A DNA stretch of 64,000 bases from the IMG/VR virus record IMGVR_UViG_3300028833_000058; one strand, 5' to 3'. A model generated the notes under the pieces. That model searched no databases and had not been told where the DNA came from. It worked only from the letters and a program-made list of their open reading frames with translations. This stretch comes from a virus. Its lineage: Duplodnaviria; Caudoviricetes. A program made the translations under genes and the position numbers. How positions within the stretch are numbered: the stretch's first letter is position 1; each line of letters begins with the position of its first letter. Below, piece by piece: positions 5,362 through 64,000 of the stretch.

Positions 5362-5736
5362 TTATTTTCCAGAAACTCTTGTTGAAATTGAAGATGTTAT
5401 GTTATTTAAACTTGGAACACTAAAAACAACGTTTACTTCATAACTATTCATGTCTACTCTATACACATGAATATCAGCTGGACTTAAACTAACTCTAGGT
5501 TCATTTTGTTCAATGTCTACATAAAGAAAAGCAACAATGTCAGCTGGTTCTACATTGTTTTCAAATAGCAAAGAATACAGGTTTGTTCCATAGTCACGAT
5601 TAAATGGAACAGTACCCTTTGGAGTTGTTAAAAGTCTTTCGATATTTTGCTTTATGGCGTTTAAATCATATACAATGCTGTTTAATTCTGCATTAGATGT
5701 ATTAAACTTTGTGTTCAAGTCTGAATAAGTCGTCAT
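5362..5736 (-). CDS. Baseplate wedge/sheath initiator, gp25-like
   Basis: AIKQNIERLLTTPKGTVPFNRDYGTNL...EPRV GPW/gp25 signature. Confidence 0.9.
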   Translation of the reverse strand: MTTYSDLNTKFNTSNAELNSIVYDLNAIKQNIERLLTTPKGTVPFNRDYGTNLYSLLFENNVEPADIVAFLYVDIEQNEPRVSLSPADIHVYRVDMNSYEVNVVFSVPSLNNITSSISTRVSGK

Positions 5737-49928: not shown

Positions 49929-50283
49929 TCATCTTCTCTCTATGTTCATCAATCATTTTACAAACTTTTTCTAACTTCATAAGATATTTTTCGTCCAAAT
50001 CTATCTGGCCATTGTTATACATCTCTAAATCTTTCTTCCACGTATCAATCATACCGTCATCAATGAGGTCAATTAACTCAATCATATTCTTTTGTATTTC
50101 TTCTGACCCATTGAAAAGATAAAAGTGACAATGATTTAGAGCGGCAACCCACTTGGCATCACAATATGACCAATCTTTTTCTAAAGCTAAACCAAAAAAG
50201 TTAAGAAAGTGTCTAAACCACTTACCTAATTTAGACCAATCGTAGTTGTAATTGTATTCCTCGTTAAAATTATCGTGTTTCAT
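49921..50283 (-). CDS. Hypothetical protein
   Basis: SD AAGGAG. Confidence 0.55.
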   Translation of the reverse strand: MKHDNFNEEYNYNYDWSKLGKWFRHFLNFFGLALEKDWSYCDAKWVAALNHCHFYLFNGSEEIQKNMIELIDLIDDGMIDTWKKDLEMYNNGQIDLDEKYLMKLEKVCKMIDEHREKMNV

Positions 50284-50534
50284 TTATTAACTCCTTTTGT
50301 TTTAGAATAATCCTTTGCTTACGATAATCATCACGTACTTTTTCTAAAACTTTTTTCTTTTCCTCATTGTCTTGATTATAAAAATCATTCAACTGTTGAG
50401 CTTCATGCTCATCTTCGATATATTGTTGTATCTTCAAGTGATTTATCATAGTTACTCCTGAATGAAACGTGACTGATTAAACTGAAATAAATATACATTT
50501 CAGTTACAGATAAGTAAAGACAATTTTTAGTTAT

Positions 50535-50785
50535 TTACCAGAAATAATATTTGTTTAAAGTTTCTAAATCTTCTTTTGTAACTTTGTAATTGGAATCATT
50601 ACAAATCACAGCGTCTACACCACAATATGGACATACAGCCGTTTTTCTTTTGTCTGTCCATTCTTTAACATTTTCTGGTGGGAAAGTACGTTTACAGTAA
50701 AAACAACCACACAAGTCAGTTTTTTCTATCTTTTCTTTATTGTAGATAGCACATTTGTGTAATTTTACTACTCTTTTTGATTCAT
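50535..50785 (-). pseudogene. Small Cys-rich protein frame (CGCFYC...CPYCGVDAVI) with out-of-frame start
   Basis: Conserved-looking frame lacks an in-frame start; the nearby ATG frame reads MNQKE** across an A5 run. Confidence 0.45.
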
Positions 50786-51415
50786 GGTAGTTTTTTTTGT
50801 TTTATTAAAGAAAAAGTTGGTCTTTTTAACCCAGGCAGGAGAAGAACCAACAGAAACTCCATAGAAGGTAACATTAACCTAGTTACCACGGTTTATCATT
50901 CCAGGGCTCTTTCTTGCAGAGCAGCAGATAGTTTCTTTTATGTTCTAGAACTAACAAATACAGTTACACAACGTCTAACTAACGGATGGGTTGTGATAAA
51001 TAGTTATCCCATCAACTATTGGAACTAACAATGAATAAAAAATGATAATTAAGAGATTTTTTATTCGTCTTGTATATTACACAATAATTTTAAAAAGTAA
51101 AGACATTATTTCTTTTTCTTTTTATTATCCACAACAACAGGAACTTCTTTCTTAGGTTCTCTGACGTTGCACTTTGGGGCCTTACCAACATCTTCTGATA
51201 AGTTCTTGATGATAGGACTTAATTTGAGATGTTTAGCCCATTTCTTTTTGAACATCATCTCTTCGAATGATTTCTTCTTCTGTTCAATGTCCATTAACAA
51301 TCTCCTTCTTTGTTGTTATAAGTGTATATAATAGAACAATAAAAAGTTGGACATTTGTAAAGTTTTTGTAGAATTTTATAAAAAAAAGCGTGTCCATAAG
51401 AACACGCTCTATTGT

Positions 51416-51949
51416 TTATCTGGTAATCTGATAGAAGTAATACCTCTTATTTCCGATTCTAACAATTCTAATCATCATAAACGGAAATTCACCTAAACCA
51501 AATAAAGCTTCATATCTTTTGTACTTTGGTTTAGTAAGAGTAAGACCTAAATCTTCTTTTACGTCATTTTCAACTTCTTGAAGTAAATATTCGCATACTT
51601 CATTTGAGCAAAATTCAACATCTTTTTTACAACACAACGGTTGTTCGTGTACCATACCTCTTTCTAAATAATCTTTAAAGTATTCTTTAACGTCAGTTTT
51701 CAATTCTTCATATTCTAAAGCTTGATTTTGATAAGTAATATGTCTTCCTTTATCATCAAAAATGCCATAAGCTCTAATATTGAATAAAGAATCTGTTAAA
51801 CTTTCATCATCTTGTTTCAACATAGACAAGTAATGTTTAACAATCTCAAAACATTTATCAGCAAAATCACGTTTACAATCATTAGTGATATCATCAATAG
51901 AGTTATCACCGAGTTCACGAAAATTGTGGACAGTTTCTTTTTTTAACAT
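51416..51949 (-). CDS. Hypothetical protein
   Basis: SD AAGGA; terminator hairpin at about 51381-51409. Confidence 0.55.
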   Translation of the reverse strand: MLKKETVHNFRELGDNSIDDITNDCKRDFADKCFEIVKHYLSMLKQDDESLTDSLFNIRAYGIFDDKGRHITYQNQALEYEELKTDVKEYFKDYLERGMVHEQPLCCKKDVEFCSNEVCEYLLQEVENDVKEDLGLTLTKPKYKRYEALFGLGEFPFMMIRIVRIGNKRYYFYQITR

Positions 51950-52103
51950 ATCTTTTTCCTTTATGGTTAATGGGTTCAGAATGGTTACTGAACATGTCTT
52001 TTACAATTCATCTAACAAGTTAGATGACAGAAATAAATTTACATCTATTTCTGTCATATTATAGAACTTATTTTATTTTATCCACAAAGAAAATTTATTA
52101 GTT

Positions 52104-52775
52104 TTAAAATTTCATCTTTCGACCTTTTTTCCAGCCTTGAGCTACAAATTGGTCTAAAAATTCTTTTTTTATACTTTTATTTTGTTTTAATTCGTCATTG
52201 TATACCCAACAATGACCATAGTTTGAATTTAAATTCCCTTTTTGACGAATTGAATTTTTTATAGCTATTTTCTTCTTTGTTTCTTCTGTTAAATGTTTTC
52301 CTTTCATTGGGTTTTCATGTGTTCTATAGTATTCTTTAAGTCCGTTTGATATTCTTTCTATGTATTCGGAATATTCTTTTTGTGTCATTGATGTCCAAAA
52401 TTTCTTATTTCCAATGATACATGGGTGATTTTTTCCATATTCAATCCAGTTGTTTTTCGCTTTTATAGATTGGATTTCATGATTGTTACAACAATAATCC
52501 CATCCACCTTCTCCACCAACTTTTATGTTATATGTATCAACTCTTTTTATAAATTCTTCATCGACAAGTTCTTTTTCTTTTTGATTCATTTCTTCTTCAC
52601 TCTTACATTCAAATAAAATTTCTTTTTTAAAATTGTTTAATCCATACTTTTTGAATGCTTCAAAAAGTATTTTTCCAGAACCCATGTATTCATCATTTAT
52701 CTTATCAGTTTTATGTTTTCCAATGTAAATTTTATTGTTTAAAACGTTTGTTATTTTATATATTAAAAAGTACAT
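52104..52775 (-). mobile_element. GIY-YIG (Seg-like) homing endonuclease with NUMOD3, at the end of tRNA operon 1
   Basis: IYKITN...KIYIGKH...YMGSG; MKGKHLTEETKKKI; start revised to ATG 52775 (SD AAGGAG). Confidence 0.88.
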
Positions 52776-52823
52776 AACTGTCTCCTTATGTACTAGAACT
52801 TTTTTGTACACAAATTTTTGAAA

Positions 52824-52898
52824 TGGCACAGGATGGTTAGAATCGAACTACCATCTTTCGGGTTGGAGCCGAATATTTTACCATTAAACTAATCCTGC
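52824..52898 (-). tRNA. tRNA-Trp(CCA)
   Basis: Cloverleaf, TTCGG-CTCCAAC-CCGAA, CCA end. Confidence 0.9.
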
Positions 52899-52903
52899 AT
52901 CAA

Positions 52904-52981
52904 TGGGGTGGTCGGTGAGGATTTGAACCCACATTCACTAGAACCACAATCTAGGGCTTTAACCAATTAAGCTACGACCAC
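52904..52981 (-). tRNA. tRNA-His(GTG)
   Basis: CTAGA-TTGTGGT-TCTAG, CCA end. Confidence 0.92.
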
Positions 52982-53026
52982 AAGAATATACCACATTACT
53001 GATATATGCTTCTAGTCGCAAAAAAA

Positions 53027-53100
53027 TGGCAGAGGTTGACTGACTCGAACAATCATCTTTGGTTTTGGAGACCAGTGTTCTACCTTTGAACTAAACCTCC
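53027..53100 (-). tRNA. tRNA-Trp(CCA), second divergent copy
   Basis: TGGT-CTCCAAA-ACCA, CCA end. Confidence 0.88.
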
Positions 53101-53102
53101 GT

Positions 53103-53177
53103 TGGAGCGACTCATGAGAATTGAACTCATATCTCTAGTTTGGAAGACTAGCATAATAGCCATTATACGAGAATCGC
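53103..53177 (-). tRNA. tRNA-Gly(TCC)
   Basis: CTAGT-CTTCCAA-ACTAG. Confidence 0.92.
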
Positions 53178-53179
53178 AT

Positions 53180-53253
53180 TGGAGAACCGCACAGGAGTCT
53201 AACCTGCCTAATTCGGGTTGCAGCCGAACACATAAACGCTCTGTCAACGGTCC
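53180..53253 (-). tRNA. tRNA-Cys(GCA)
   Basis: TTCGG-CTGCAAC-CCGAA, U discriminator. Confidence 0.88.
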
Positions 53254-53255
53254 AT

Positions 53256-53333
53256 TGGTGGCAATAACTTGAATCGAACAAGTAACTTCATCCTTATGAG
53301 AGATGCGTTCTAACCAAATTGAACTATATTGCC
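53256..53333 (-). tRNA. tRNA-Met(CAT), probably elongator
   Basis: CATCT-CTCATAA-GGATG; operon leader contains an internal ATG. Confidence 0.85.
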
Positions 53334-53336
53334 ATT

Positions 53337-53412
53337 TGGTGAAGATGGTGAGAATCGAACTCACACTCCCCTGATTAAAAGTCAGGTGCTTTACCGATTA
53401 AGCTACATCTTC
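53337..53412 (-). tRNA. tRNA-Lys(TTT)
   Basis: CCTGA-CTTTTAA-TCAGG. Confidence 0.93.
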
Positions 53413-53414
53413 AA

Positions 53415-53490
53415 TGGTGGATACCCCAAGAATCGAACTCGGTCCTTCTGTTCTTCAGACAGACGTACGCACCAGCTATACCAGATATCC
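53415..53490 (-). tRNA. tRNA-Phe(GAA)
   Basis: TCTGT-CTGAAGA-ACAGA. Confidence 0.9.
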
Positions 53491-53492
53491 AT

Positions 53493-53571
53493 TGGTGGAG
53501 AATGTGAGTTTTGAACTCACCTGAATTTCTCGGTGCAAACGAGATGACCACCCCAAGCAGTCCCATTCCCC
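53493..53571 (-). tRNA. tRNA-Ala(TGC)
   Basis: TCTCG-TTTGCAC-CGAGA; G3:U70 pair. Confidence 0.9.
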
Positions 53572-53601
53572 ACGAAATTTATAATATATACCTAAAAATA
53601 A

Positions 53602-53637
53602 GAAAAACCCCCGAAACTTTTTATTTTTTCGGAGGTT
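53602..53637 (-). terminator. Attenuator terminator upstream of tRNA operon 1
   Basis: AACCTCCGAAA-loop-TTTCGGGGGTT followed by TTTCTT. Confidence 0.8.
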
Positions 53638-53676
53638 GTACAATTTTTTACTTAGAGCCAAGAAATAAAGTTTTAG

Positions 53677-53754
53677 TTAATAGTCGACACCTCCGTCAGT
53701 TTTACCTGCGAATCCAAACATGTGCCAACATTTCTTAACTAATCTATTCATCAT
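53677..53754 (-). CDS. Leader peptide 1, MMNRLVKKCWHMFGFAGKTDGGVDY
   Basis: 25 aa ORF with SD AAGGAG; its codons match the downstream Ala/Phe/Lys/Met/Cys/Gly/Trp/His tRNAs. Confidence 0.85.
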   Translation of the reverse strand: MMNRLVKKCWHMFGFAGKTDGGVDY

Positions 53755-53787
53755 ATTAAATAGAACTCCTTTTTCTTTACTTCTTCT

Positions 53788-53816
53788 CTTATATCAAACT
53801 TTTTTCATAAAGTCAA
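53788..53816 (-). promoter_or_regulatory. Sigma70-like promoter upstream of leader 1
   Basis: TTGACT-17-TATAAG; a GTTCTA motif also lies at 53766-53761. Confidence 0.5.
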
Positions 53817-53836
53817 GTATTTTTTTTTAAGATTTT

Positions 53837-53964
53837 TGTCAAAGAGAATTTTTCAAACAGATTTTTGCAGCAGGACTTGAACCTGCATAGCTTTTCAGCT
53901 GTTGTTTTTTGAGAACAATGTGTATACCATTTCACGATGCAACTGTTTGACCGCTTCTTTGACA
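53837..53964 (-). ncRNA. Y-RNA-like (YrlA-type) RNA with tRNA-Leu(CAA)-like domain
   Basis: Terminal stem GTCAAAG-AAGCGG-TCAAACAG / CTGTTTGA-AAAATTCT-CTTTGAC enclosing D arm, CT-CAA-AA loop, long variable arm and GGTTCAAGTCC T arm; downstream of TROVE. Confidence 0.75.
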
Positions 53965-54067
53965 TAATAACTAAATGAAAAACTTTACGTATTTTTCTTG
54001 AGTACTTCTCAACAACGGTTAGTCAACATTGGAGAGGGGGTATGAAGCCCTAGAAGTAATTAGTTTG

Positions 54068-54188
54068 TGGTAAAGAGTATAAATAGAACAGGTTTATTGC
54101 AGTAGGACTTGAACCTACAATCCTTTGATTAAAAATCAAATGTTTTATCCACTTAAACGATGCAACTGTTCCAACCGCTTCTTTACCA
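54068..54188 (-). ncRNA. Y-RNA-like (YrlA-type) RNA with tRNA-Lys(TTT)-like domain
   Basis: Same AAGCGG/CTCT stem motif; TTTGA-TTTTTAA-TCAAA arm; GTAGG-TTCAAGT-CCTAC. Confidence 0.75.
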
Positions 54189-54199
54189 AAATTTATGCT

Positions 54200-54273
54200 C
54201 GAAGAGAATATTTAGAAATTGTGTATTTAGTCAACAACCCTTAGACGATGTAACAATTTCAACCGCTTCTTCG
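54200..54273 (-). ncRNA. Short Y-RNA-like RNA (no tRNA domain)
   Basis: CGAAG-AAGCGG-TTGAAATTG-TTACATCG...CAATTTC...TTCTCTTCG. Confidence 0.65.
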
Positions 54274-54282
54274 CTCTAATAA

Positions 54283-54597
54283 TTATTCACACAAATCAGA
54301 GTTTGTACATGAGTTGTATGGCTTACGACTATATGAAACTTCTTCATAAGTTTTTGGCTCATAAACTGTAGTATAAGTAACATCTTTGTAAATTACTTCT
54401 ACTGGTTTAGAAATAGTGTAACTTGTTGAACAAGTGTTACATTCATTGTTGTAAGAACGATATGTGTTGTAAGAAGGTTTAGTGTAGTTTACAACAGGTT
54501 TTTGTTCTTCAACTTTTGGAGTAACAATTACTTCTTCTGTTTCAGCACAAGTACAAGCACTTAATAAAATAGAGCATAACATTAAAACTTTTTTCAT
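54283..54597 (-). CDS. Small putative lipoprotein
   Basis: MKK + hydrophobic stretch + LSAC lipobox. Confidence 0.7.
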   Translation of the reverse strand: MKKVLMLCSILLSACTCAETEEVIVTPKVEEQKPVVNYTKPSYNTYRSYNNECNTCSTSYTISKPVEVIYKDVTYTTVYEPKTYEEVSYSRKPYNSCTNSDLCE

Positions 54598-54629
54598 GTC
54601 AATTACCTTTCGAACGTTGTTGATAAGTT

Positions 54630-54721
54630 AGTGAGGATTAGAGTATCATAAAGATTTGTTATTTCTAAAGCAGATTACATGTCTGGACTCGATGTAAATC
54701 TTTAACCGCTTAATCCTCACT
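54630..54721 (-). ncRNA. Y-RNA-like RNA immediately after the TROVE stop
   Basis: AGTGAGGATT-AAGCGG-TTAAAGAT-TTACATCG...ATCTTTA...ACTCT-AATCCTCACT. Confidence 0.65.
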
Positions 54722-54724
54722 TTC

Positions 54725-56353
54725 TTAGTCATTTACCGATGTCTTTATTTTAATAGAACTCTTCTTTTCTACTTTTTCATCTGTAATATTATCCATTCTA
54801 TCCCAAATGTCAATTAAAGTTTTAGCATAAATGGATTCTTTACCAGTCCAACCAGTTAGAATACTTGTTCTGTATTCATTTTCTGGCATTACATTGTTGT
54901 CATAGCCAGCTGTTTGAATAGAAAAGATATTAACTTTTGCATTAACCTTTCTTCTATATTCTTGAACAAGCTTTAAGACATCAATGAATTTTGAATTGTT
55001 GTATAAATAATCACGATAATGATGTTCATTTAATCCATACAATCCACCATGACCAGCTTGCATATCAGAGTAGATGAAAATGTTATCGTAATGTATCTTT
55101 TTCTTTATAGCTTCGTCAAAGAATAACCATATACCATTTTCAGTACTAGCACCGATGTTGTGTGAATGTCTACATTGAATTCTATCTAATTGAGACAGTA
55201 CACCATCTCTTTTGTTGACTGATTCGATTTCTAACCTATCTCCAAAGATTCCAACATACCCTTCATCAGAATTAATAGCTGTCATAACTGAAGATAAGTT
55301 ATCAATTTCAGCAACTTTAGTAGAACCATATTCAGTAGTTAATGCACCCCATGCTGAACCAGAGTTATCCGACAAGCAGATGGTCTTACCCTTTAACTTA
55401 GGGAAATTGTCCATTGCTCTATCTATACATCTGTTCAAGCTTTCTACAATAGCAGATTCACCCTTAACACGTGGATTAGAAGTTTGAATAGCCTTTAATG
55501 CAGACCAATATCTAAATGGAAATTGCTTACCCTTTTCGACACCGTTTTCAAGCATTTCAAGAACTTGCTTTCTGACATCTTCATCTTCAATCTCAGTAAA
55601 AATACCACGTAAGTTTCTTAAAAGAGCCATATGTGGGACATAAGTTGCTTGTAAAATTTCTGTCCAAGTTTTACCAGCACTTCTTAACTTTTCCCAAGTA
55701 GATTCTTCTTCTGTAACTTCAATAGTACCAGACTTCATAAGTTCATCAATGTCTTCAGAGTGAGCATGACAAATACGAACTAAGTCGATGATTTTAGCAC
55801 TTGTCTTGTACTTAGCCAATTGATATTTTTTAGTTACAGATAATTTGTTAGCCCATGCTCTTTTTAAGATAGATGGTAATTTACTTTTGGAGCCATTGAA
55901 GAACATCCACAATTCGAACTGATTCCAAATGTCAGTAGGAATGTTGATAACTTCTTCAATGCAACTACGCATGAACACCTTGTTTTCTTCATTAAAAGCT
56001 TTTCTACCATCATACATTACAGCTCTAACCATAATCAAAGCTGGGTTTAAACGCATATTGTATTCATATCTTAACTTTTTAGCAAGATTTAATACACCTT
56101 CGAAATCATAAGCTAAAGCATTGTCACAAGCTTCAACAAAAGTTGCTGTTGTACCAGATAACTCTTTGTTGTTAGCACCATCGTTTTTGTAATATGACTT
56201 TTCACCAAAAATAGATGACGCAGCAACCATTTCTAGCTCTAGCAATGGGTTAGTTTTATAGGAAATACCATTCATGAAGTTTACAACTTGCTCATCTTTG
56301 TGCTTGTTGTAATCTGCTTCAGATTTCTTTGCATAACCTGAGAATTTAGACAT
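54725..56353 (-). CDS. Ro60/Rsr TROVE-domain RNA-binding protein with C-terminal vWA domain
   Basis: DLVRICH, TWE, PHMALLRNLR, KQFPFRYWSA, vWA DNSGS...SDMQ, GW. Confidence 0.9.
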   Translation of the reverse strand: MSKFSGYAKKSEADYNKHKDEQVVNFMNGISYKTNPLLELEMVAASSIFGEKSYYKNDGANNKELSGTTATFVEACDNALAYDFEGVLNLAKKLRYEYNMRLNPALIMVRAVMYDGRKAFNEENKVFMRSCIEEVINIPTDIWNQFELWMFFNGSKSKLPSILKRAWANKLSVTKKYQLAKYKTSAKIIDLVRICHAHSEDIDELMKSGTIEVTEEESTWEKLRSAGKTWTEILQATYVPHMALLRNLRGIFTEIEDEDVRKQVLEMLENGVEKGKQFPFRYWSALKAIQTSNPRVKGESAIVESLNRCIDRAMDNFPKLKGKTICLSDNSGSAWGALTTEYGSTKVAEIDNLSSVMTAINSDEGYVGIFGDRLEIESVNKRDGVLSQLDRIQCRHSHNIGASTENGIWLFFDEAIKKKIHYDNIFIYSDMQAGHGGLYGLNEHHYRDYLYNNSKFIDVLKLVQEYRRKVNAKVNIFSIQTAGYDNNVMPENEYRTSILTGWTGKESIYAKTLIDIWDRMDNITDEKVEKKSSIKIKTSVND

Positions 56354-56387
56354 TTTAGTTCCTTCCTTTCTTTCTCGATTTGTTGTG

Positions 56388-56421
56388 ATTATATTTTCAA
56401 TTTTTGTTAAAGTAAAGTCAA
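56388..56421 (-). promoter_or_regulatory. Sigma70-like promoter of the TROVE/Y-RNA unit
   Basis: TTGACTTTACT...: TTTACT-17-TATAAT. Confidence 0.6.
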
Positions 56422-56448
56422 TTGTTGTAATTTATACACTTTAGCTGA

Positions 56449-56634
56449 TTAGTTAAGCACTAACTTGTTGAATTTAATGTTTAAATAATCAGCTATAGCT
56501 TTTTTCCAATTGAACTTCTTTACTTTCTTTTTCTTATTCGGCACTACTTTATGTTGAAATAGTGCATTGTGGTAAAGATTGAATAACAAACATCTCTCTT
56601 CACCTGTTTTAGTTCGTTTTGTTTTCTTTTTCAT
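56449..56634 (-). CDS. ArfA-like alternative ribosome rescue factor candidate
   Basis: Basic 61 aa; LYHNALFQHKVVPNKKK resembles ArfA LLHDPLFRQRVEKNKKG; long hairpin over the 3' end. Confidence 0.55.
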   Translation of the reverse strand: MKKKTKRTKTGEERCLLFNLYHNALFQHKVVPNKKKKVKKFNWKKAIADYLNIKFNKLVLN

Positions 56635-56826
56635 TTTATTTCTCCAAATTATTTTTAATATATTTTTTAAAATACTGACGAACTTTTTTATTGTAATCTT
56701 TAATCATAGCTTGAACAGCATTTTTGTCTCCACTACGTTTATAATCACTTTTATATTCTTCGTCAGGTTTTACATTTATGTTTTTATATCCTTTCATTTT
56801 ATTTCTCCGATAAAAAAGGGAGATTG

Positions 56827-57210
56827 TTATCTCCCGTTGTTTTTGTTACACGCTACGAAACTGCTGTACATTTCCTTGTTAATATTTATGTCCATAGTTT
56901 CAGCTCGTTCCCTCGCTTTTCTTTCATAATATTCAAATCTATCTTTTGTTAATGGATAAAAATACAAGGCTCTCGATTCCATTATTACTAACTTCTTCAA
57001 TTCCTTCTCTGATTTTTCAGCATATTCTTTACATAACATTCTAAAAAGACCGTCTTCTGTTTCTTCATCTTTTATAACGTGTCCATAATGTTTAGATAAC
57101 TTATAAGCTTGTAAATCAATGTTAGCTTGTGTTTCTATCGCTCTTTGTATGTCACCAGACAATTTGCTAAAATTAGACCCCTTTTCATCAGAAAAATGTC
57201 TATAGTCCAT
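56827..57210 (-). CDS. Hypothetical protein
   Basis: ORF track; GTTCTA motif upstream. Confidence 0.55.
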   Translation of the reverse strand: MDYRHFSDEKGSNFSKLSGDIQRAIETQANIDLQAYKLSKHYGHVIKDEETEDGLFRMLCKEYAEKSEKELKKLVIMESRALYFYPLTKDRFEYYERKARERAETMDININKEMYSSFVACNKNNGR

Positions 57211-57381
57211 TGTAATAATTCCCTATATATATGTGAAGTGTAATGTATAGAACTAAAAAATCGTTTGTCCATTTTAGAATAATGACCTAGGAAATTCTAA
57301 AACTCTATGTTAATTCATACGACAGGTTTTAACATTACTAAGATGTCATGGAACTACTGGGACAATTGTACAAAAAAGTGT

Positions 57382-57410
57382 TTGACATTTTGTCCAATCT
57401 AGTGTATAAA
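57382..57410 (+). promoter_or_regulatory. Near-consensus sigma70 promoter
   Basis: TTGACA-17-TATAAA, 4 nt before the ATG. Confidence 0.65.
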
Positions 57411-57414
57411 CTTT

Positions 57415-57723
57415 ATGTGTCAAACAACTGAACTGGACAAAGCAATGGATGTTTTACTTCGTATACTCATAATCTTTATGTTGTTATATATGGTCTATAT
57501 AACCATATCATCTATTTGGGAAGCTGGTGGTCGTACCATACTCGGAAGTATAATGTTTGTGGCCATGATGTGGGCCTTTTGTGCACTTTTAAATACAACT
57601 ATCGTACAAGCTCTTATAGCTTGTTGTTTTCTAGTTGTAATTGTCATGTTGGTACTTCAAGCTATAGCTTGTTTTCTTTCATCAATGATTAGTTATATCA
57701 ATAAGTTATTTAATCATGAATGA
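57415..57723 (+). CDS. Small membrane protein (3 TM)
   Basis: Hydrophobic; own promoter; opposite orientation to the island. Confidence 0.6.
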   Translation: MCQTTELDKAMDVLLRILIIFMLLYMVYITISSIWEAGGRTILGSIMFVAMMWAFCALLNTTIVQALIACCFLVVIVMLVLQAIACFLSSMISYINKLFNHE

Positions 57724-58084
57724 AAGAATCAATAAAATCTTCTAAACTAATTTTTTCACCAGTCTCTTTGTTTGTTGCAATCTGTTTGTCAAGACGTATC
57801 ACAAACGAATCGTTAGAAAGAACATATGCACTAAGTTGTCTAAATCCTCTATCTTTAAAGAATTGTAAGATATCTAAGTAGATTTTTGTGTCTTTTGATG
57901 GTTTAATTTTGTCCATATCGACTTTACCATTTCTCCAATCGTTATACATATATTTCGGTAACCATCCAACATATTTTATGCACCGTGTACAACGAATCCC
58001 AAATATTTCAGGATGCGTCTTAGAAATAATATGTTCAAAGTGCGTAGACCCACATATAGGACATATGAATTTATCATTCTTCAT
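57710..58084 (-). CDS. Zn-ribbon protein (start revised to 58084)
   Basis: CPICG...CTRC; SD GAGG. Confidence 0.6.
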   Translation of the reverse strand: MKNDKFICPICGSTHFEHIISKTHPEIFGIRCTRCIKYVGWLPKYMYNDWRNGKVDMDKIKPSKDTKIYLDILQFFKDRGFRQLSAYVLSNDSFVIRLDKQIATNKETGEKISLEDFIDSFIHD

Positions 58085-58105
58085 GAAACTTCCTCTCAGA
58101 TTTAG

Positions 58106-58179
58106 TGGTTTCGGGGGGTCGATTCGGACGACCATTAACGCAGTCAAAGTGCGCTATCCTACCATTAGACGACCCCGAA
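58106..58179 (-). tRNA. tRNA-Gln(TTG)
   Basis: GCGCA-CTTTGAC-TGCGT, CCA end; variant T loop TCCGAAT. Confidence 0.88.
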
Positions 58180-58186
58180 ATAAGAC

Positions 58187-58314
58187 GATTGGAGGAGGAG
58201 TCGAACCTCACACAATTAAGAATTACCGTTCTTAAAATTTTCCTCTACTTCCCGTCTTCTTAATCAAACTTTCTTTCGGTAAAAATACTTATTTGACATA
58301 GTAGAGCTCCAACC
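58187..58314 (-). ncRNA. Unclassified tRNA-like RNA, copy A
   Basis: GGTTGGAG/CTCCAATC stem, GAGG-TTCGACT-CCTC arm; covaries with copy B. Confidence 0.65.
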
Positions 58315-58349
58315 ATAAAAAAACAATAACTTTTTAATTGAATAGTTCA

Positions 58350-58640
58350 TCACTACCTTGTTCAGTTTGTGGTCTGGAACATATCTTCATCTTCAACATT
58401 ACTTGGCTAGATGGAATCCACTTGTTCTCTACACATTTATTACGAAAGTGCCAGAATCGAACTGGGAACTAAGATTACAACACCCATAGAAGTTATCTCA
58501 GTTTCTATCTATGCTCAATAGGGTCCAACACTATCTCACCTTCATAAATTTAGCTCGGTATTGTCATCAGCATTATCTGTTAAGATTTCACTGAATTCGG
58601 ATTCATTCAAATATACATTTCTGTATAAGTGTTCAGTTTT
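58350..58640 (-). mobile_element. Group I intron-like core joined to a tRNA-Gln 5' half (58644-58679)
   Basis: P3 AATCC/GGATT, P4 AATTCAGTGAA...AATACCGAGC, P7 AGAGAACA/ATATGTTCC, P8 CATCT/AGATG. Confidence 0.6.
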
Positions 58641-58686
58641 ACCCAAAATCTCATGTCCTACCATTAGACGACCCCGAAATAATCAC

Positions 58687-58822
58687 GGTTGGAGGTGGAG
58701 TCGAACCACACACCACTAACATCTGCAGATATTAGAATTTCCCTCTACTTGCCGTTATCTTAATCAAACTTTCACTTCTGCAGAAGTACTCATTTGACAT
58801 ATGAAACATTAGAGCTCCAACC
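58687..58822 (-). ncRNA. Unclassified tRNA-like RNA, copy B
   Basis: GGTTGGAG/CTCCAACC, GTGG-TTCGACT-CCAC. Confidence 0.65.
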
Positions 58823-58967
58823 ATAAAAAACAATAACTTTTTGATTGAATAGTTCATCACTACCAAACCTAAACGGAGAAGTTATTGCAGAAACTCCCTA
58901 AACGTAGGATAGGATTGATAACATTACTAAGATGCCATAGCAATAGTCCTATCACTTCAAACTAAAA

Positions 58968-59060
58968 TGGCACCCCGTAAACTGATTCGAACAGCATTCC
59001 CGTACTAATTGACTGGAGCTATAGACATTCAACTAGCGGTCACCATGACTACAACGAGGT
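58968..59060 (-). ncRNA. Atypical tRNA-like RNA with CCA end and 16-nt central loop
   Basis: ACCTCGT/ACGGGGT-G-CCA; TTCGAAT T loop. Confidence 0.55.
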
Positions 59061-59069
59061 ATTAAATGT

Positions 59070-59189
59070 TCTTCTTGACAAGGCTTGAACTTGTACCTAA
59101 ACCTTAGAGGGAATTGTGCTACCGCCGTTAGGGTTTAGTAAAAAGAGCTATAGTATTTACTAAATCTATCCGTTTACACTACAAGAAGA
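59070..59189 (-). ncRNA. Atypical tRNA-like RNA with a hairpin inserted in the D loop
   Basis: CTTCTTG/CAAGAAG acceptor, ACAAG-TTCAAGC-CTTGT T arm, TTTAGTAAA/TTTACTAAA insert. Confidence 0.55.
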
Positions 59190-59194
59190 TAATA

Positions 59195-59329
59195 CTATAA
59201 ATTATTAATAAACCAATTGTGAATGTTCTGCCAAAATCCAGACTTTATAGATATCAATGTACCATATATTGCTATCAACGAAACAATTATTGAAAGTATA
59301 GATTCTACAATTTCTAATTTTTCTTTCAT
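59195..59329 (-). CDS. 44-aa single-TM peptide (MKEKLEIVESILSIIVSLIAIYG...)
   Basis: Below the ORF-track cutoff; GGAG upstream. Confidence 0.45.
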   Translation of the reverse strand: MKEKLEIVESILSIIVSLIAIYGTLISIKSGFWQNIHNWFINNL

Positions 59330-59474
59330 TTAACATATTCTCCAATTTTGTATCTTTCTAGGCTACTACTGCGCAACCCTACGACTGCTGCACCATCGTT
59401 TTACGTTCTTCGTTTACTCAGCTTGTATCGTCAATGAAAGTTCCTGAGCTGACGTTTTCCAACCTATTACAACT

Positions 59475-59555
59475 TGGCGGGGCCACATGATTTTCACACG
59501 TTATCTTGGACCTACATCCTAAGCAATCTGTTCTAGAACCAGATTTAACGCCCCA
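59475..59555 (-). ncRNA. Atypical tRNA-like RNA ending in CCA
   Basis: TGGGGC/GCCCCG-CCA with three arms but non-canonical loops. Confidence 0.45.
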
Positions 59556-59782
59556 TAAAAAAATCGGCAATCGGTTTTTACCCTTTATCCACTCGCTGTT
59601 CGAACTCTTTAGCGTTGGAGGGTCAGGTTACTGTTTTCTACAGCACATAGTTATTTAGGCAATTACCTCTAAATACTAACAACACGCCATCAACCTGTCT
59701 GATTATATAAGCATCAATTTAATACTTATCCGATGTACATTCATATTAAATTGTACTAGTCTATATAATCACGAATTAGAAT

Positions 59783-59868
59783 TGGTGCAAGGTGATAGAG
59801 TCGCACTACCCGAGTCCGAAGACAAGTGATTTACAGTCACTCCCGCTACTCCTACGGTATAACCTTGC
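59783..59868 (-). tRNA. tRNA-Tyr(GTA)
   Basis: AGTGA-CTGTAAA-TCACT, long variable arm. Confidence 0.88.
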
Positions 59869-60025
59869 ATAAAAGTAATCCGATAATATCTAAATCTACA
59901 CTTACTTGGTACTAGCATGTAAAACATACTGTCCAAAGCCCCCACTTTCAATTTCTAAAGAAATAGCCGCTCGGATTAACACGGTGGGATGGATTCTACG
60001 AAAAAAGTACGTAAAATCAATGGTT

Positions 60026-60099
60026 TGGTCGAGAACGTCCGATTCGAACGGCAATCCCTCGCCCCAAACGAGGAGTGTTACCCTTACACCACGTTCTCG
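60026..60099 (-). tRNA. tRNA-Pro(TGG)
   Basis: CCTCG-TTTGGGG-CGAGG. Confidence 0.9.
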
Positions 60100-60109
60100 A
60101 TGAATAAAA

Positions 60110-60186
60110 TGGTGGAACAGGAGTGACTTGAACACCCAACCTATCCGTTATGAGCGGAGAGCTCTGACCAATTGAGCTACTGTTCC
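60110..60186 (-). tRNA. tRNA(CAT), probably Ile2 (lysidine)
   Basis: CTCATAA loop; the operon leader contains an ATA codon. Confidence 0.75.
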
Positions 60187-60187
60187 A

Positions 60188-60706
60188 TTAAGCTTTTTTA
60201 TAAGATTTATTCTTCAATATAAAGATTATTCTGCTATGTGCAACACCAAATTTTCTAGCTAATCCACGAGTTCCGAATTCTTTATGTTTTGGAATATAAT
60301 GTTCTCTTATCCATTTAGCTTGTTCATTTGTAAGTTTTGCACCATGGTTATCTTCACCACCATGATATGTTATTAAATTATGCTTTACTGCGTGAATAGT
60401 ATTTTCTTGATTAGTACACCACTCTAAGTTATCCCAACGATTGTTTAATTTGTTTCCATCAATGTGATTTACTTGTGGTTTGTTTTCTGGATTTGGTACA
60501 AAAGCTTCAGCAACCAACCTGTGAATTTTTACACATTTACATCCACCTTTTCTACCATTTGGATATAAAGCGTATACATAATAGCCTGTCTTTCCAATTT
60601 GTTGCTTTACGTTTTTGTTAGACCTACCCTTTAGATTGCCTAGATTACTTATAAAATAACCTTGTATATCAATTTCTTTCCAAATTTCTTCTTCGATGTT
60701 TTCCAT
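60188..60706 (-). mobile_element. NUMOD4-HNH homing endonuclease inserted between tRNAs
   Basis: EIWKEI..YFISNLG; HRLVAEAF...VNHIDGNKLNN...NLEW. Confidence 0.92.
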
Positions 60707-60794
60707 TTACAAATTCCTATATTGTTATGACTAATTTATAGAACTATATAAATGGTGCCTATTTTTCATCGAACACAAAATTTTTATAAAAATT

Positions 60795-60866
60795 TGATTC
60801 CAACGAGATTCGAACTCGTATTACCACCGTGAAAGGGTGATGACCTAACCGTTAGTCGATGGAATC
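60795..60866 (-). tRNA. tRNA-Glu(TTC), CCA not encoded
   Basis: TCACC-CTTTCAC-GGTGG. Confidence 0.88.
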
Positions 60867-60945
60867 ATAATAATCAACGCTTTTTGATTGCATGGTAAAA
60901 ACCACCAAACCTTATTATGGAGAAGCATTGATGAAACTCCTTGAT

Positions 60946-61022
60946 TGGCGGGAGTGACCAGTCTTGAACTGGCGACCTCCACAGTGACAGTGTGGCGTTC
61001 TGACCAACTGAACTACACCCCC
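60946..61022 (-). tRNA. tRNA-Asp(GTC)
   Basis: CCACA-CTGTCAC-TGTGG. Confidence 0.92.
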
Positions 61023-61024
61023 AT

Positions 61025-61112
61025 TGGTGGATTTGATGAGACTTGAACTCATATGGTCACAATGACCGAGGGATTTTAAGTCCCTTGCGTATACCAGTTT
61101 CGCCACAAATCC
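61025..61112 (-). tRNA. tRNA-Leu(TAA)
   Basis: AGGGA-CTTAAAA-TCCCT, long variable arm. Confidence 0.92.
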
Positions 61113-61116
61113 AAAT

Positions 61117-61191
61117 TGGCTGGGATGGAGAATTTCGAAATCTCGACCTACGGTTTAACAGACCGCCGCTCTGCCTCTGAGCTACACCCCA
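61117..61191 (-). tRNA. tRNA-Asn(GTT)
   Basis: GCGGT-CTGTTAA-ACCGT. Confidence 0.9.
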
Positions 61192-61197
61192 ATATAA

Positions 61198-61272
61198 TGG
61201 TGCCACATGAGAATTTTGCAATCCCGACCTACCGCTTACAAGGCGGTTGCTCTACTTCTGAGCTAATGTGGC
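61198..61272 (-). tRNA. tRNA-Thr(TGT)
   Basis: ACCGC-CTTGTAA-GCGGT. Confidence 0.9.
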
Positions 61273-61276
61273 ATTT

Positions 61277-61410
61277 TGGCGGGAGTGACTATATCTGTGT
61301 CATTATAAAGTCATTTAATTAACATTTTGTATCACTGAGTGTCCTACACTTTTATATATCTAGAATCAGATAGGCAAAACTCTAACTACTTTGTATTTAA
61401 CAGAACTCCC
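61277..61410 (-). ncRNA. 134-nt RNA with Asp-like acceptor stem and CCA end
   Basis: GGGAGT/ACTCCC-G-CCA; last 13 nt identical to tRNA-Asp. Confidence 0.4.
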
Positions 61411-61417
61411 ATAATAA

Positions 61418-61494
61418 TGGCAGACCGTACAGGACTCAAACCTGTGACACCAAGCTTAGAAGGCTTGTGCTCTATTCTACTGAGCTAACGGTCT
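61418..61494 (-). tRNA. tRNA-Arg(TCT)
   Basis: CAAGC-CTTCTAA-GCTTG. Confidence 0.92.
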
Positions 61495-61820
61495 ATAAGA
61501 GTTATATAGGATAGGTAAACCAACGTATTTACCTCTTGCGTTATGGAGCAATGATTTGTTCCAATGTAATCTGGGCTCATCTATTCTTACGAGATAGACC
61601 ATCCTATATGTTCTATGGTTTGGGATGTGGAAGCGAATCCATCTTCCTTTTTGTACCCTAGGCCTGACCGATATACACTTTACAATGTATAACATCCCAA
61701 GACTTGTAGTTTTCATAACGGTCCATTTAGAGATTCTACTGAGCACTGTCCGTTATGGGAATCTGCTTTGTTAAGGAGCTCTAAATCTCTTAACCGCAGT
61801 TACTACAACCCTCTCAGCAG

Positions 61821-62186
61821 CTAATCTTTAATCTTCACGAGTTCATAAACATTAATTGGATATTTCCTTTGTTCACAATTTGCAATTTTATAAACTCTAT
61901 GTTTATCTATACCCAAAATATATTTTACGATTCTACCGATATCTTTACCAGCTTCAGCTTCTGGGTTATCAATTTTTCTTTTTACATGGTACTGATACAC
62001 ATAATCTAATGGTGTATAAGACCAATCTCTAAATTTACCTCCAACAATATCAGAAGTGGTAAATTGCTTTTTATAAGCCAAAGCTCCTTGAATCATACCA
62101 TTTATAAAAGTTGTCAATTCAGCTTGTTGCATGTAAGATAGTGATTCAAAAGCACTGGACTTTTGTATGTTAGAATTGATAATCAT
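61821..62186 (-). CDS. Hypothetical protein inside tRNA operon 2
   Basis: SD AAGGA before ATG 62186. Confidence 0.6.
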   Translation of the reverse strand: MIINSNIQKSSAFESLSYMQQAELTTFINGMIQGALAYKKQFTTSDIVGGKFRDWSYTPLDYVYQYHVKRKIDNPEAEAGKDIGRIVKYILGIDKHRVYKIANCEQRKYPINVYELVKIKD

Positions 62187-62280
62187 AGCTCTTTTCCTTT
62201 CATGTATGATTATAATGTTAAACAAGTTTATTAAATGAGAAACAAGTTATTTAACGACCCCTGTTTCGGTTTAAGTCGAT

Positions 62281-62373
62281 TGGCGGAGAGAGTAGGATTC
62301 GAACCCACGGTGGTATATTTCACCCACGGCTGATTTCAAGTCAGCTGCAATAGACCAACTCTGCCATCTCTCC
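62281..62373 (-). tRNA. tRNA-Ser(TGA)
   Basis: GCTGA-CTTGAAA-TCAGC, long variable arm. Confidence 0.93.
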
Positions 62374-62381
62374 ATGATATT

Positions 62382-62462
62382 TACAGATGGAGAGATTTGA
62401 ACTCTCACGCATTTCTGCACTGGTTCCTAAGACCAGAGTGTCTACCGTTCCACCACATCTGT
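62382..62462 (-). tRNA. tRNA-Leu(TAG), CCA not encoded
   Basis: CTGGT-CTTAGGA-ACCAG. Confidence 0.9.
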
Positions 62463-62469
62463 ATAAATT

Positions 62470-62546
62470 TGGTACAGCTGGATAGACTCGGACTATCGAC
62501 CCCTGCCTTATCAGAGCAGTGCTCTAACCAACTGAGCTACAGCTGT
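62470..62546 (-). tRNA. tRNA-Ile(GAT)
   Basis: CTGCT-CTGATAA-GGCAG. Confidence 0.9.
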
Positions 62547-62551
62547 ACAAA

Positions 62552-62628
62552 TGGTAGAGGTGAAGAGATTTGAACTCCTGACCCTCTCGGTGTAAACGAG
62601 ACGCTCTAACCAGCTGAGCTACACCTCT
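62552..62628 (-). tRNA. tRNA-Val(TAC)
   Basis: TCTCG-TTTACAC-CGAGA. Confidence 0.93.
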
Positions 62629-62665
62629 ACAAAAAGTATTTCCTATTCACAATGTCATTATAACT

Positions 62666-62700
62666 AAAATAAAAACTCGTCTTTTTATCTTTGACGAGTT
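62666..62700 (-). terminator. Attenuator terminator upstream of tRNA operon 2
   Basis: AACTCGTC-loop-GACGAGTT followed by TTTATTTT. Confidence 0.8.
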
Positions 62701-62750
62701 CCTATTTCTTTTAACTTTTTAAATGTTTTGATTAAGCAATAGCAAACTCG

Positions 62751-62813
62751 TCAGCCTTGTTCTCTAGGTTGATTATATAAATCTGAGTATGTTACTATCG
62801 TTTTAATCATCAT
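62751..62813 (-). CDS. Leader peptide 2, MMIKTIVTYSDLYNQPREQG
   Basis: 20 aa ORF; its codons match the 12 amino acids of the downstream tRNAs; antiterminator begins at the stop codon. Confidence 0.85.
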   Translation of the reverse strand: MMIKTIVTYSDLYNQPREQG

Positions 62814-62842
62814 ATTAATTAGAACCTCTTCATTGAAATTTT

Positions 62843-63127
62843 TTATATTGTACAGAATTTTTTCTTATTTGTAAAGTCTTTTTTTTCAATTTTCTTTACT
62901 TTTTTGTTAATATAGTTGATAACATCTTGAACTGTAATGAATTTTTTTGATACCTTGTCTGGTATTTCAATATCAAATTCACACTCTAAAGCCATTATAA
63001 TTTCGATTATATCCAAACTATCGGCTCCGAAATCGTCAACCAAGCTTTTAGATTTCTTGATTGCGGATTCTTTTATGTCCAAGTGTTCAGAAATGATACC
63101 TATTACTAATTTTTCAACACTCTTCAT
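62843..63127 (-). CDS. acpP: Acyl carrier protein
   Basis: DFGADSLDIIEIIMALECEFDIEIPD with the phosphopantetheine Ser. Confidence 0.9.
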   Translation of the reverse strand: MKSVEKLVIGIISEHLDIKESAIKKSKSLVDDFGADSLDIIEIIMALECEFDIEIPDKVSKKFITVQDVINYINKKVKKIEKKDFTNKKKFCTI

Positions 63128-63149
63128 TCTCTCACCTTGTGAAAATTAC

Positions 63150-63545
63150 CGATTCTTTAAGCACGTTGGGTATGCCGTCTGAATAACTGACTACTCCTTA
63201 CGTTATCATTCTCAGTTGTACGATAACAGCCCAATAGTCATATAGTTGACGTTTTGCACATAGTGGCATCTCGGTATTCCATTTGTCTTTACAGACATTC
63301 GTATATAAATTCGGCTGAAGGACTCCTGACTACCTCCAAGCAGTATATTAAGCGCATTATTCAGTCACATCCACATAAGTTAGCTACTCTTATGCTTTTA
63401 GGATGAGGAGATTGATTACTCCTAAACGGATACAGATATCAGCATTTCAACCTACGATTTGTCCGTTTCTTACGTCACTAAAGGTTGGCCAACCCTTGCT
63501 ATTTCAACCTTATGCTTCTTAATACCTGGCAACTATATAGTAAAC
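63150..63545 (-). ncRNA. Large structured ncRNA candidate (ROOL/GOLLD-like class)
   Basis: About 400 nt with no ORF; long-range helices ATATAGTTG/CAACTATAT and CTGAATAA/TTATTCAG plus many hairpins. Confidence 0.55.
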
Positions 63546-63613
63546 TTTTCAGTATTATTATATATCTCTTTATTAGCCATCAACTAATTATTTAGAGAAA
63601 GCCAAATTTATAT

Positions 63614-63691
63614 TGGTTGCAGGGAATGGATTCGAACCACTGACCTCTAGGTTATGAGCCTAGCAAGCTGACCTGACTGCTCTACCCTGCT
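63614..63691 (-). tRNA. tRNA-Met(CAT), initiator-like
   Basis: Unpaired 1:72, TAGAGCAG D arm, CTAGG-CTCATAA-CCTAG, AACCA end. Confidence 0.85.
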
Positions 63692-64000
63692 ATAAAACAA
63701 ACTTATGGGTTATTGATGTTCTATATTTGAACTATAAATAGGTGATAAAGCTATTTATTTAGGCACCTCCCCTAAAATTTTCAATATAATTGGCAGAGCG
63801 TTTAATGCGTTTTCAGGAGTTCTGCCAACAAATTTATATGTCATTTCTTTTAGGTCTACACCATTTTACCCCCTAGGCTGCTTAAGACGAATGACAAGAC
63901 TAGCAGTGTTATATCTATCCGTTTTAACAAAATAAGAATTTGGTGCCCTCTAGATATAACAGTATAGTTTGGGCGGACTATGGTTCTAATTGGAGCAGAT

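Follow-up and report, generated by a model that had tools for sequence, protein, structure and literature searches.

Does the short ORF that stands, together with a predicted intrinsic terminator, before an array of nine tRNA genes in this phage make transcription of these genes dependent on how rapidly their own codons are decoded? Bacterial and phage tRNA genes are thought to be controlled at their promoters and by processing, and we know of no tRNA genes whose transcription responds to how quickly the codons read by their own products are decoded. The window (the whole stretch of DNA analysed here, 64,000 nt) is the reverse strand of a 79.4-kb IMG/VR record with a GC content of ~31%. The record is 33% complete according to the CheckV estimate and, because a relative of 227 kb is 95% complete, it represents a fragment of a jumbo phage. 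More than two dozen tRNA genes (identified by ARAGORN and Rfam) lie on the minus strand in the final 11 kb of the window, together with a Ro60/TROVE-like gene, Y-RNA-like modules and homing endonucleases. Just upstream of the unit studied here, in the region 53837-54290 (minus strand) that adjoins the Ro60/TROVE-like gene (54725-56353), we found three copies of a conserved 5' module starting with AAGAAGCGGT; two of the three carry tRNA-like bodies, for which ARAGORN calls tRNA-Lys(TTT) and tRNA-Leu(CAA). A GIY-YIG-like, homing-endonuclease-like ORF (52104-52829, minus strand) directly follows the nine-gene array (array 1), and an HNH-like one (60189-60706, minus strand) lies inside a second array (array 2).

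Pattern scans of IMG/VR and of JGI metagenomes yielded six further distinct versions of the unit that comprises the short ORF and array 1, which makes seven variants including the window. In the window this unit (unit 1, 53816 to 52824) consists of the following parts:

53788..53816, minus strand: promoter-like site with the hexamers TTGACT and TATAAG 17 nt apart; a TG lies one base ahead of the latter
53766..53770, minus strand: Shine-Dalgarno-like sequence AGGAG; the first ATG of a tandem pair follows after 11 nt
53677..53754, minus strand: leader ORF of 25 codons plus stop, opening with ATGATG and kept in the seven variants
53701..53736, minus strand: sensor run, codons 7-18, composed only of Lys, Cys, Trp, His, Met, Phe, Gly and Ala
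53722..53742, minus strand: 5' arm of the protector (anti-antiterminator), inside codons 5-11, from the minimum-free-energy fold, the RNAalifold consensus and pair counts
53673..53690, minus strand: 3' arm of the protector, spanning the stop codon, from the same three sources
53689..53695, minus strand: antiterminator arm CGGAGGT within codons 20-22, at a distance of 10-16 nt from the stop codon
53606..53637, minus strand: intrinsic terminator hairpin with an 11-bp stem and a 10-nt A-rich loop, about -13.5 kcal/mol
53592..53605, minus strand: T-rich tract following the terminator hairpin, read from the sequence and the alignment
53579..53600, minus strand: conserved AT-rich, -10-like element between the terminator and tRNA-Ala, from the alignment of the seven variants
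52824..53571, minus strand: array 1, with genes for tRNA Ala, Phe, Lys, Met, Cys, Gly, Trp, His and Trp (ARAGORN, Rfam)

The promoter-like site, whose first hexamer is of the TTGACTTTA type also seen before the Ro60 gene and other genes of the record, is kept as a TTTACA-type site in six relatives. In the relatives the Shine-Dalgarno-like site takes the form AAAGG; the 11-nt spacing between AGGAG and ATG in the window is at the long end. The terminator is separated from tRNA-Ala by a gap of 20-30 nt, and the anticodons of array 1 are, in order, Ala(TGC), Phe(GAA), Lys(TTT), Met(CAT), Cys(GCA), Gly(TCC), Trp(CCA), His(GTG) and Trp(CCA). The leader peptide has no Pfam or PHROG family. It should be stressed that a simple scan for promoter and terminator consensus is blind at this locus and its silence on these elements is no evidence: the unit-1 promoter was missed because its second hexamer ends in G, and the terminators were missed because their loops are longer than 8 nt.

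According to the preliminary description, codons 7-18 of the leader spell Lys-Lys-Cys-Trp-His-Met-Phe-Gly-Phe-Ala-Gly-Lys and correspond to the anticodons encoded downstream. The codons read exactly as reported there, and the correspondence with array 1 is complete at the amino-acid level, since all 12 residues of the run belong to the eight-member set of amino acids served by the array and all eight members are covered. Computed from the amino-acid usage of the long ORFs of this phage for a 12-residue window, the chance that all residues fall into the set and that the set is fully covered is P ~9e-9 per position, and the six-frame translation of the whole 79-kb record contains no second 12-residue run of this kind. 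Under strict wobble, array 1 decodes 12 of the 23 leader codons versus 6.3 expected; 9 of the 23 are not from array 1, and the codon GGT, which occurs twice in the sensor, can be read by the Gly(TCC) tRNA only under relaxed wobble at U34. The sensor is also thin, each tRNA having merely one to three codons in the leader, in contrast to the long runs of the classical his and phe leaders.

The same description proposed that the leader RNA switches between alternative helices, and here too its pairings could be reproduced: the protector arms (53742-53722 and 53690-53673) pair as drawn, with two G-U pairs, and CGGAGGT (53695-53689) is the exact complement of ACCTCCG (53636-53630) within the 5' arm of the terminator. 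The predicted ground state is a three-tier protector hairpin, which connects codons 5-11 with the region of the stop codon and buries CGGAGGT, followed by the terminator. The protector belongs to the minimum-free-energy fold of the window and of two relatives (G001 and G002), and the RNAalifold consensus of the seven variants agrees with it; by alignment count, its tiers are paired in 62% (outer tier), 86% and 80% of cells. It is absent from the fold of another relative (G003), in which the antiterminator pairing forms even without a ribosome. CGGAGGT can pair with the 5' arm of the terminator in 49 of 49 cells across the seven variants, versus 29-51% when the partner is slid, and this pairing survives two one-sided changes (G-C to G-U and U-A to U-G). 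The pairing of the stop-proximal segment with the terminator arm outperforms 2000 background windows (p = 0.0005). The antiterminator itself comprises only 7 bp, which close a loop of ~52 nt. Since its 5' strand is invariant, double-compensatory changes are lacking, and they cannot be used to tell its conservation apart from coding constraint. The terminator is paired in 93% of the alignment and contains one compensatory change, from a C-G to a U-A pair, in two variants.

Folding with ribosome masks, which the preliminary description had recommended as a check, was carried out with a 31-nt mask on the RNA made before the 3' arm of the terminator emerges. With the A site at codons 6-16 the 5' arm of the terminator is predicted to pair with CGGAGGT, the only exception in the window being codon 10. 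With the ribosome at codon 17 or later, including the stop codon, this arm pairs elsewhere, and without a ribosome it is likewise not paired with CGGAGGT in the window. The masked folds switch in the same manner in the relatives, and the zone in which a stall is predicted to be productive is that of the sensor codons. Apart from a protector shared by all relatives, the computable structural predictions of the attenuator reading all hold in these models, which support it; termination, translation and the response to tRNA shortage are inferred.

Comparison of the seven variants reveals which parts of the unit are kept. The segment Val-Lys-Lys-Cys-Trp-His-Met-Phe-Gly-Phe-Ala-Gly-Lys is invariant, and the changes within the sensor, at His, Gly, Ala and Lys codons, are all synonymous. 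The residues flanking the sensor on its N- and C-terminal sides vary, and the nucleotides of CGGAGGT never change even though the tail residues encoded there do. The promoter region and the spacer preceding the terminator have diverged strongly. Every version of unit 1 precedes the same set of tRNA genes, with tRNA-Ala displaced in one of them and Gly(TCC) replaced by Gly(GCC) in two. We compared the first Gly codon of the sensor (53713-53715) with the anticodon of tRNA-Gly (53103-53177) in the window and in relatives L015, L016, L017, L062 and L066: GGA accompanies Gly(TCC) and GGC accompanies Gly(GCC) in five of six genomes, the exception being G003, which combines GGC with TCC. A strict link between this codon and the Gly anticodon is therefore suggestive only.

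A paralogous unit, located upstream of array 2, is built from the same parts around an unrelated leader peptide:

62668..62875, minus strand: unit 2 as a whole, preceding the second array
62875-62847, minus strand: promoter of unit 2
62813-62751, minus strand: leader of unit 2, 20 codons
62752-62745, minus strand: antiterminator arm of unit 2, overlapping the stop codon
62706-62668, minus strand: terminator of unit 2

From the promoter to ATGATG, units 1 and 2 share 71% identity over 86 nt, with a single difference in the 18 nt that end with ATGATG. Array 2 contains genes for tRNA Val, Ile, Leu, Ser, Arg, Thr, Asn, Leu, Asp and Glu, a tRNA with the anticodon CAT, Pro, a Tyr candidate and Gln. 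The leader consists of Ile, Thr, Val, Tyr, Ser, Asp, Leu, Asn, Gln, Pro, Arg and Glu plus one Lys and one Gly, so that its 12 amino acids are those of the tRNAs of its own array, and leaders 1 and 2 jointly cover all twenty amino acids. In one relative (G002) array 2 lacks the Val, Arg and Leu tRNAs, and the corresponding leader lacks Val and Arg codons. The stems of the unit-2 terminator differ in four relatives, and the stop-proximal segment changes along with them. Homologs of unit 2 in the relatives have no clear Shine-Dalgarno site.

Array 2 and its surroundings exhibit several further peculiarities. Two of its tRNAs, at 59770-59871 and 61201-61272 (minus strand), were missed by ARAGORN; the Thr(TGT) gene was detected by Rfam alone, and the Tyr(GTA) candidate, which has an odd D arm, was recognized only by eye, roughly at the position of tRNA-Tyr in relative G001. 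The CAT tRNA (60110-60186) may read ATA, given that Ile(TAT) stands at this position in relatives. The array also includes a dense non-coding stretch (58180-60030, minus strand) without any Rfam match, with two direct repeats of ~170 nt (about 58865-58685 and 58359-58185) and a copy of the 5' half of tRNA-Gln with an insert of ~200 nt behind it, perhaps a split tRNA or one that contains an intron. A structured RNA may be encoded at 63150-63610 (minus strand), where ~450 nt of higher GC content contain no long ORF and match no Rfam family at E-values up to 1. This region is flanked by a CAT tRNA on one side and, on the other, by an acyl-carrier-protein-like ORF (62843-63127), in the 3' end of which the unit-2 promoter lies.

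To look beyond close relatives, we fetched 44 loci of other phages via the neighbouring Ro60-like protein and surveyed the tRNA arrays that are preceded by a hairpin and a T tract. Unrelated leaders that follow the same rule were found in at least three further phage groups, before other arrays (loci L038, L049, L061 and L029). The L038 group possesses three units, whose leaders list Ser/Arg/Pro/Ile/Met/Leu, Glu/Asp/Met/Leu, and all fifteen amino acids of a 15-tRNA array, respectively; L049/L051 also has three units, and L061 has one (Tyr/Leu/Ser). In the three multi-unit genomes, all eight leader/array pairs show enrichment of the leader for its own array (P from 2e-8 to 0.1), whereas against the other arrays the same eight leaders are at or below expectation. 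At the codon level, under strict wobble, P ranges from ~1e-5 to 0.2, with 9 of 10 units at or below 0.02. The synonymous choice tracks the anticodons as well: ATA appears four times in combination with Ile(TAT) in the array, CTN codons go together with Leu(TAG), and both Ser boxes and both Leu boxes are used where two tRNAs of each kind are present.

The stop-proximal segment is complementary to the 5' arm of the terminator with a background p <= 0.01 in 13 of 19 units; the combined Fisher value for the 19 units, 1e-20, overstates their independence, as the units are partly homologous. The position of the matched codons is also biased. Codons of the own array account for 80% (155 of 193) of the positions at which a stalled ribosome would leave the antiterminator free, compared with 40% (25 of 62) of those at which the antiterminator would be masked (odds ratio 6, P = 7e-9, nine independent units). 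Neither near nor distant DNA searches of GenBank phages returned anything beyond the tRNA-Ala gene, and tblastn searches of cultured phages with the leader and with a distant 35-codon leader gave nothing above chance, i.e. no cultured carrier was found. A giant-virus contig (L003) that matched the exact motif from promoter to start codon has no tRNAs and was rejected as a chance match.

We consider it probable that unit 1 is a multivalent leader-peptide transcription attenuator, which controls a phage tRNA array according to how fast the codons of its own tRNAs are decoded, albeit there are no transcript, ribosome or genetic data. What sequence and computation establish is the anatomy, the conservation, the codon match and the alternative pairings. 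The mechanism that we propose takes leader translation, terminator activity, coupling of the ribosome with RNA polymerase and the physiological trigger as inferences. Transcription would begin at the phage promoter, and ribosomes would load on the 25-codon leader. As long as all eight kinds of aminoacyl-tRNA are plentiful, the ribosome would reach the stop codon and cover CGGAGGT; the terminator hairpin could then form, and transcription would stop before tRNA-Ala. A shortage of any one of them would be expected to stall the ribosome within codons 6-16 or so, which would melt the protector helix and leave CGGAGGT free for the 5' arm of the terminator. With the antiterminator formed, RNA polymerase would read through and the nine tRNAs would be made; their accumulation would relieve the stall and turn the array off again, which would amount to product feedback. 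In the absence of translation the protector would hold CGGAGGT, and termination would be the default. The trigger may be a host tRNA pool that fits the AT-rich phage codons poorly or, alternatively, a pool that is degraded during infection or by defence nucleases. Hosts in which transcription and translation are uncoupled would make attenuation inefficient.

A broader interpretation, which we find possible but hold with considerable reserve, views the units as a modular monitor of the tRNA pool. The 20 amino acids would be split over two (elsewhere three to five) sensor/array modules, each acting as an OR gate in which any missing host tRNA turns on its own block, whether it is missing due to poor codon fit, phage-induced decay of host tRNAs or anticodon-nuclease defences of the host. 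Such a monitor would serve phage counter-defence as a sensing arm, and it would be the first known case in which the decoding activity of tRNAs feeds back on their own genes.

The probable reading of unit 1 as an attenuator tuned to its own tRNAs has to be weighed against other explanations of the same parts. The switch could be real and yet report general translation capacity or amino-acid supply, not the shortage of particular tRNAs, or, in a weaker form, it could only trim read-through while most of the tRNA transcription comes from a promoter located after the terminator. Amino-acid starvation would indeed also open the switch, because attenuators sense charged tRNA, as established for trp and his. 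The weaker form draws on the conserved AT-rich element that follows the unit-1 terminator (53579-53600), which is -10-like, lacks a -35 and could be a weak bypass promoter or a processing site, and on unit 2, whose terminator is followed in four relatives (L015, L016, L017 and L062) by a complete consensus promoter (TTTACA or TTTACT, 17 nt, TATAAT-like) ahead of the first tRNA, so that the switch there can only add to a basal level. These downstream promoters are located as follows:

L015, 8550-8600: promoter after the unit-2 terminator
L016, 10580-10640: promoter after the unit-2 terminator
L017, ~5650-5700 of the reverse complement: promoter after the unit-2 terminator
L062, reverse strand: promoter after the unit-2 terminator

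In these four relatives the promoter is followed, just before the tRNA, by a conserved element of ~27 nt; unit 2 of the window itself has this element and lacks the downstream promoter. After the terminator of unit 1 in the window, a consensus scan (of limited sensitivity) detected neither a -35 nor a consensus promoter, which speaks against the weaker form. A sensor of general capacity would furthermore need no leader that lists exactly its own array and avoids the amino acids of other arrays, nor rare codons such as ATA in combination with Ile(TAT) arrays. We regard this explanation, in either form, as unlikely.

The two remaining alternatives dispense with decoding as the signal, and we give them far less weight. 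The codon run could act as RNA, with the anticodons of (uncharged) tRNAs pairing directly with the leader in a T-box-like manner and shifting the balance between terminator and antiterminator; the input would still be tRNA, and the required terminator/antiterminator pair is present. However, neither a T-box nor any other Rfam family matches down to E = 1, the codons of every variant and family stand in a single continuous frame equipped with start, stop and Shine-Dalgarno-like site, the synonymous changes in the sensor are a translational signature, and the positions of the matched codons relative to the ribosome footprint fit the model with translation, all of which makes pairing without ribosomes very improbable. 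Alternatively, the leader could encode a functional micropeptide with a terminator of its own, the match to the tRNAs being incidental and the tRNAs being expressed independently. A core of 14 residues that is invariant in seven variants is what a functional peptide could produce, but against it stand the P value of the match (9e-9), the presence in the paralogue and in distant phages of unrelated peptides that each follow their own array, the variation of the tail residues alongside conserved terminator-pairing nucleotides, and the lack of any family match; this possibility appears to us the faintest of those considered here.

The attenuator reading that we prefer has well-characterized counterparts. 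The leaders of ilvGMEDA (Ile/Leu/Val) and thr (Thr/Ile), as well as trpL, hisL, pheL and leuL, combine, as predicted for unit 1 (with a protector that is not universal), a short translated leader with regulatory codons and alternative protector, antiterminator and terminator helices, and in enterobacterial attenuators the stop codon is likewise placed so that the terminating ribosome blocks the antiterminator. In the trp leader and in unit 1 alike, the terminator ends ~60-70 nt after the stop codon. All sequence-level features expected of ribosome-mediated attenuators are met, except for a universally conserved protector. The differences concern the genes regulated and the sensor. The enterobacterial amino-acid operons encode enzymes, whereas the genes here are phage-encoded and specify tRNAs, and thus the product itself would relieve the stall, unlike in those operons. 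The enterobacterial leaders contain runs of one to three amino acids, whereas the sensor here lists eight (elsewhere up to fifteen) with 1-3 codons each. A closer parallel with respect to the target is the pheM leader of pheST in E. coli, in which leader-peptide attenuation of an aminoacyl-tRNA synthetase operon senses Phe: there, too, a component of the translation apparatus is regulated and not amino-acid biosynthesis, but pheM responds to one amino acid and precedes a protein-coding operon, in contrast to eight amino acids and tRNA genes here. T-box riboswitches share with the present units the input (the state of a specific tRNA) and the output (a choice between terminator and antiterminator); they bind the tRNA directly without ribosomes, through the specifier codon and the T-box loop, whereas the signatures here are translational. 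No stem I, specifier loop or T-box sequence was found, and an Rfam search of 50000-64000 with E up to 1 returned only tRNAs and weak chance matches.

Clusters of tRNA genes are also present in Bacillus phage G and in T5-like phages (Epseptimavirus), and we considered both as cultured examples of the design and rejected them, since it is absent from either. Phage G encodes the closest cultured Ro60 homologue (48% identity); its tRNAs follow plain promoter-like sites without a leader or a terminator. The tRNA-Ala of the T5-like record is ~82% identical to the one here, and its annotated ORFs of ~40-170 codons lie within ~30 nt of the tRNAs that follow, which leaves no room for a switch, although this comparison rests on the geometry of the annotation only. 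The proposed mechanism is classical leader-peptide attenuation, and the tRNA-gene target and a sensor that lists every tRNA of the array are new. A bounded search of the full-text literature returned no description of leader-peptide control of tRNA genes, which is no proof of absence; one report that we consulted concerns pheL only (PMC3082878).

If the proposed attenuation is true, it would explain how tRNA-rich jumbo phages dose their tRNAs, in that the tRNAs would be made only at the time and place at which the host pool falls short, and each unit would constitute a small natural sensor with a specificity that is apparent directly from its sequence. Because each leader lists its array, the units aid annotation by defining tRNA transcription units, and the leaders predict the decoding identity of ambiguous tRNAs, e.g. 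those with the anticodon CAT that read ATA. The question of why phages carry particular sets of tRNAs, as compensation for codon usage or as an escape from tRNA-targeting defences, would thereby become testable.
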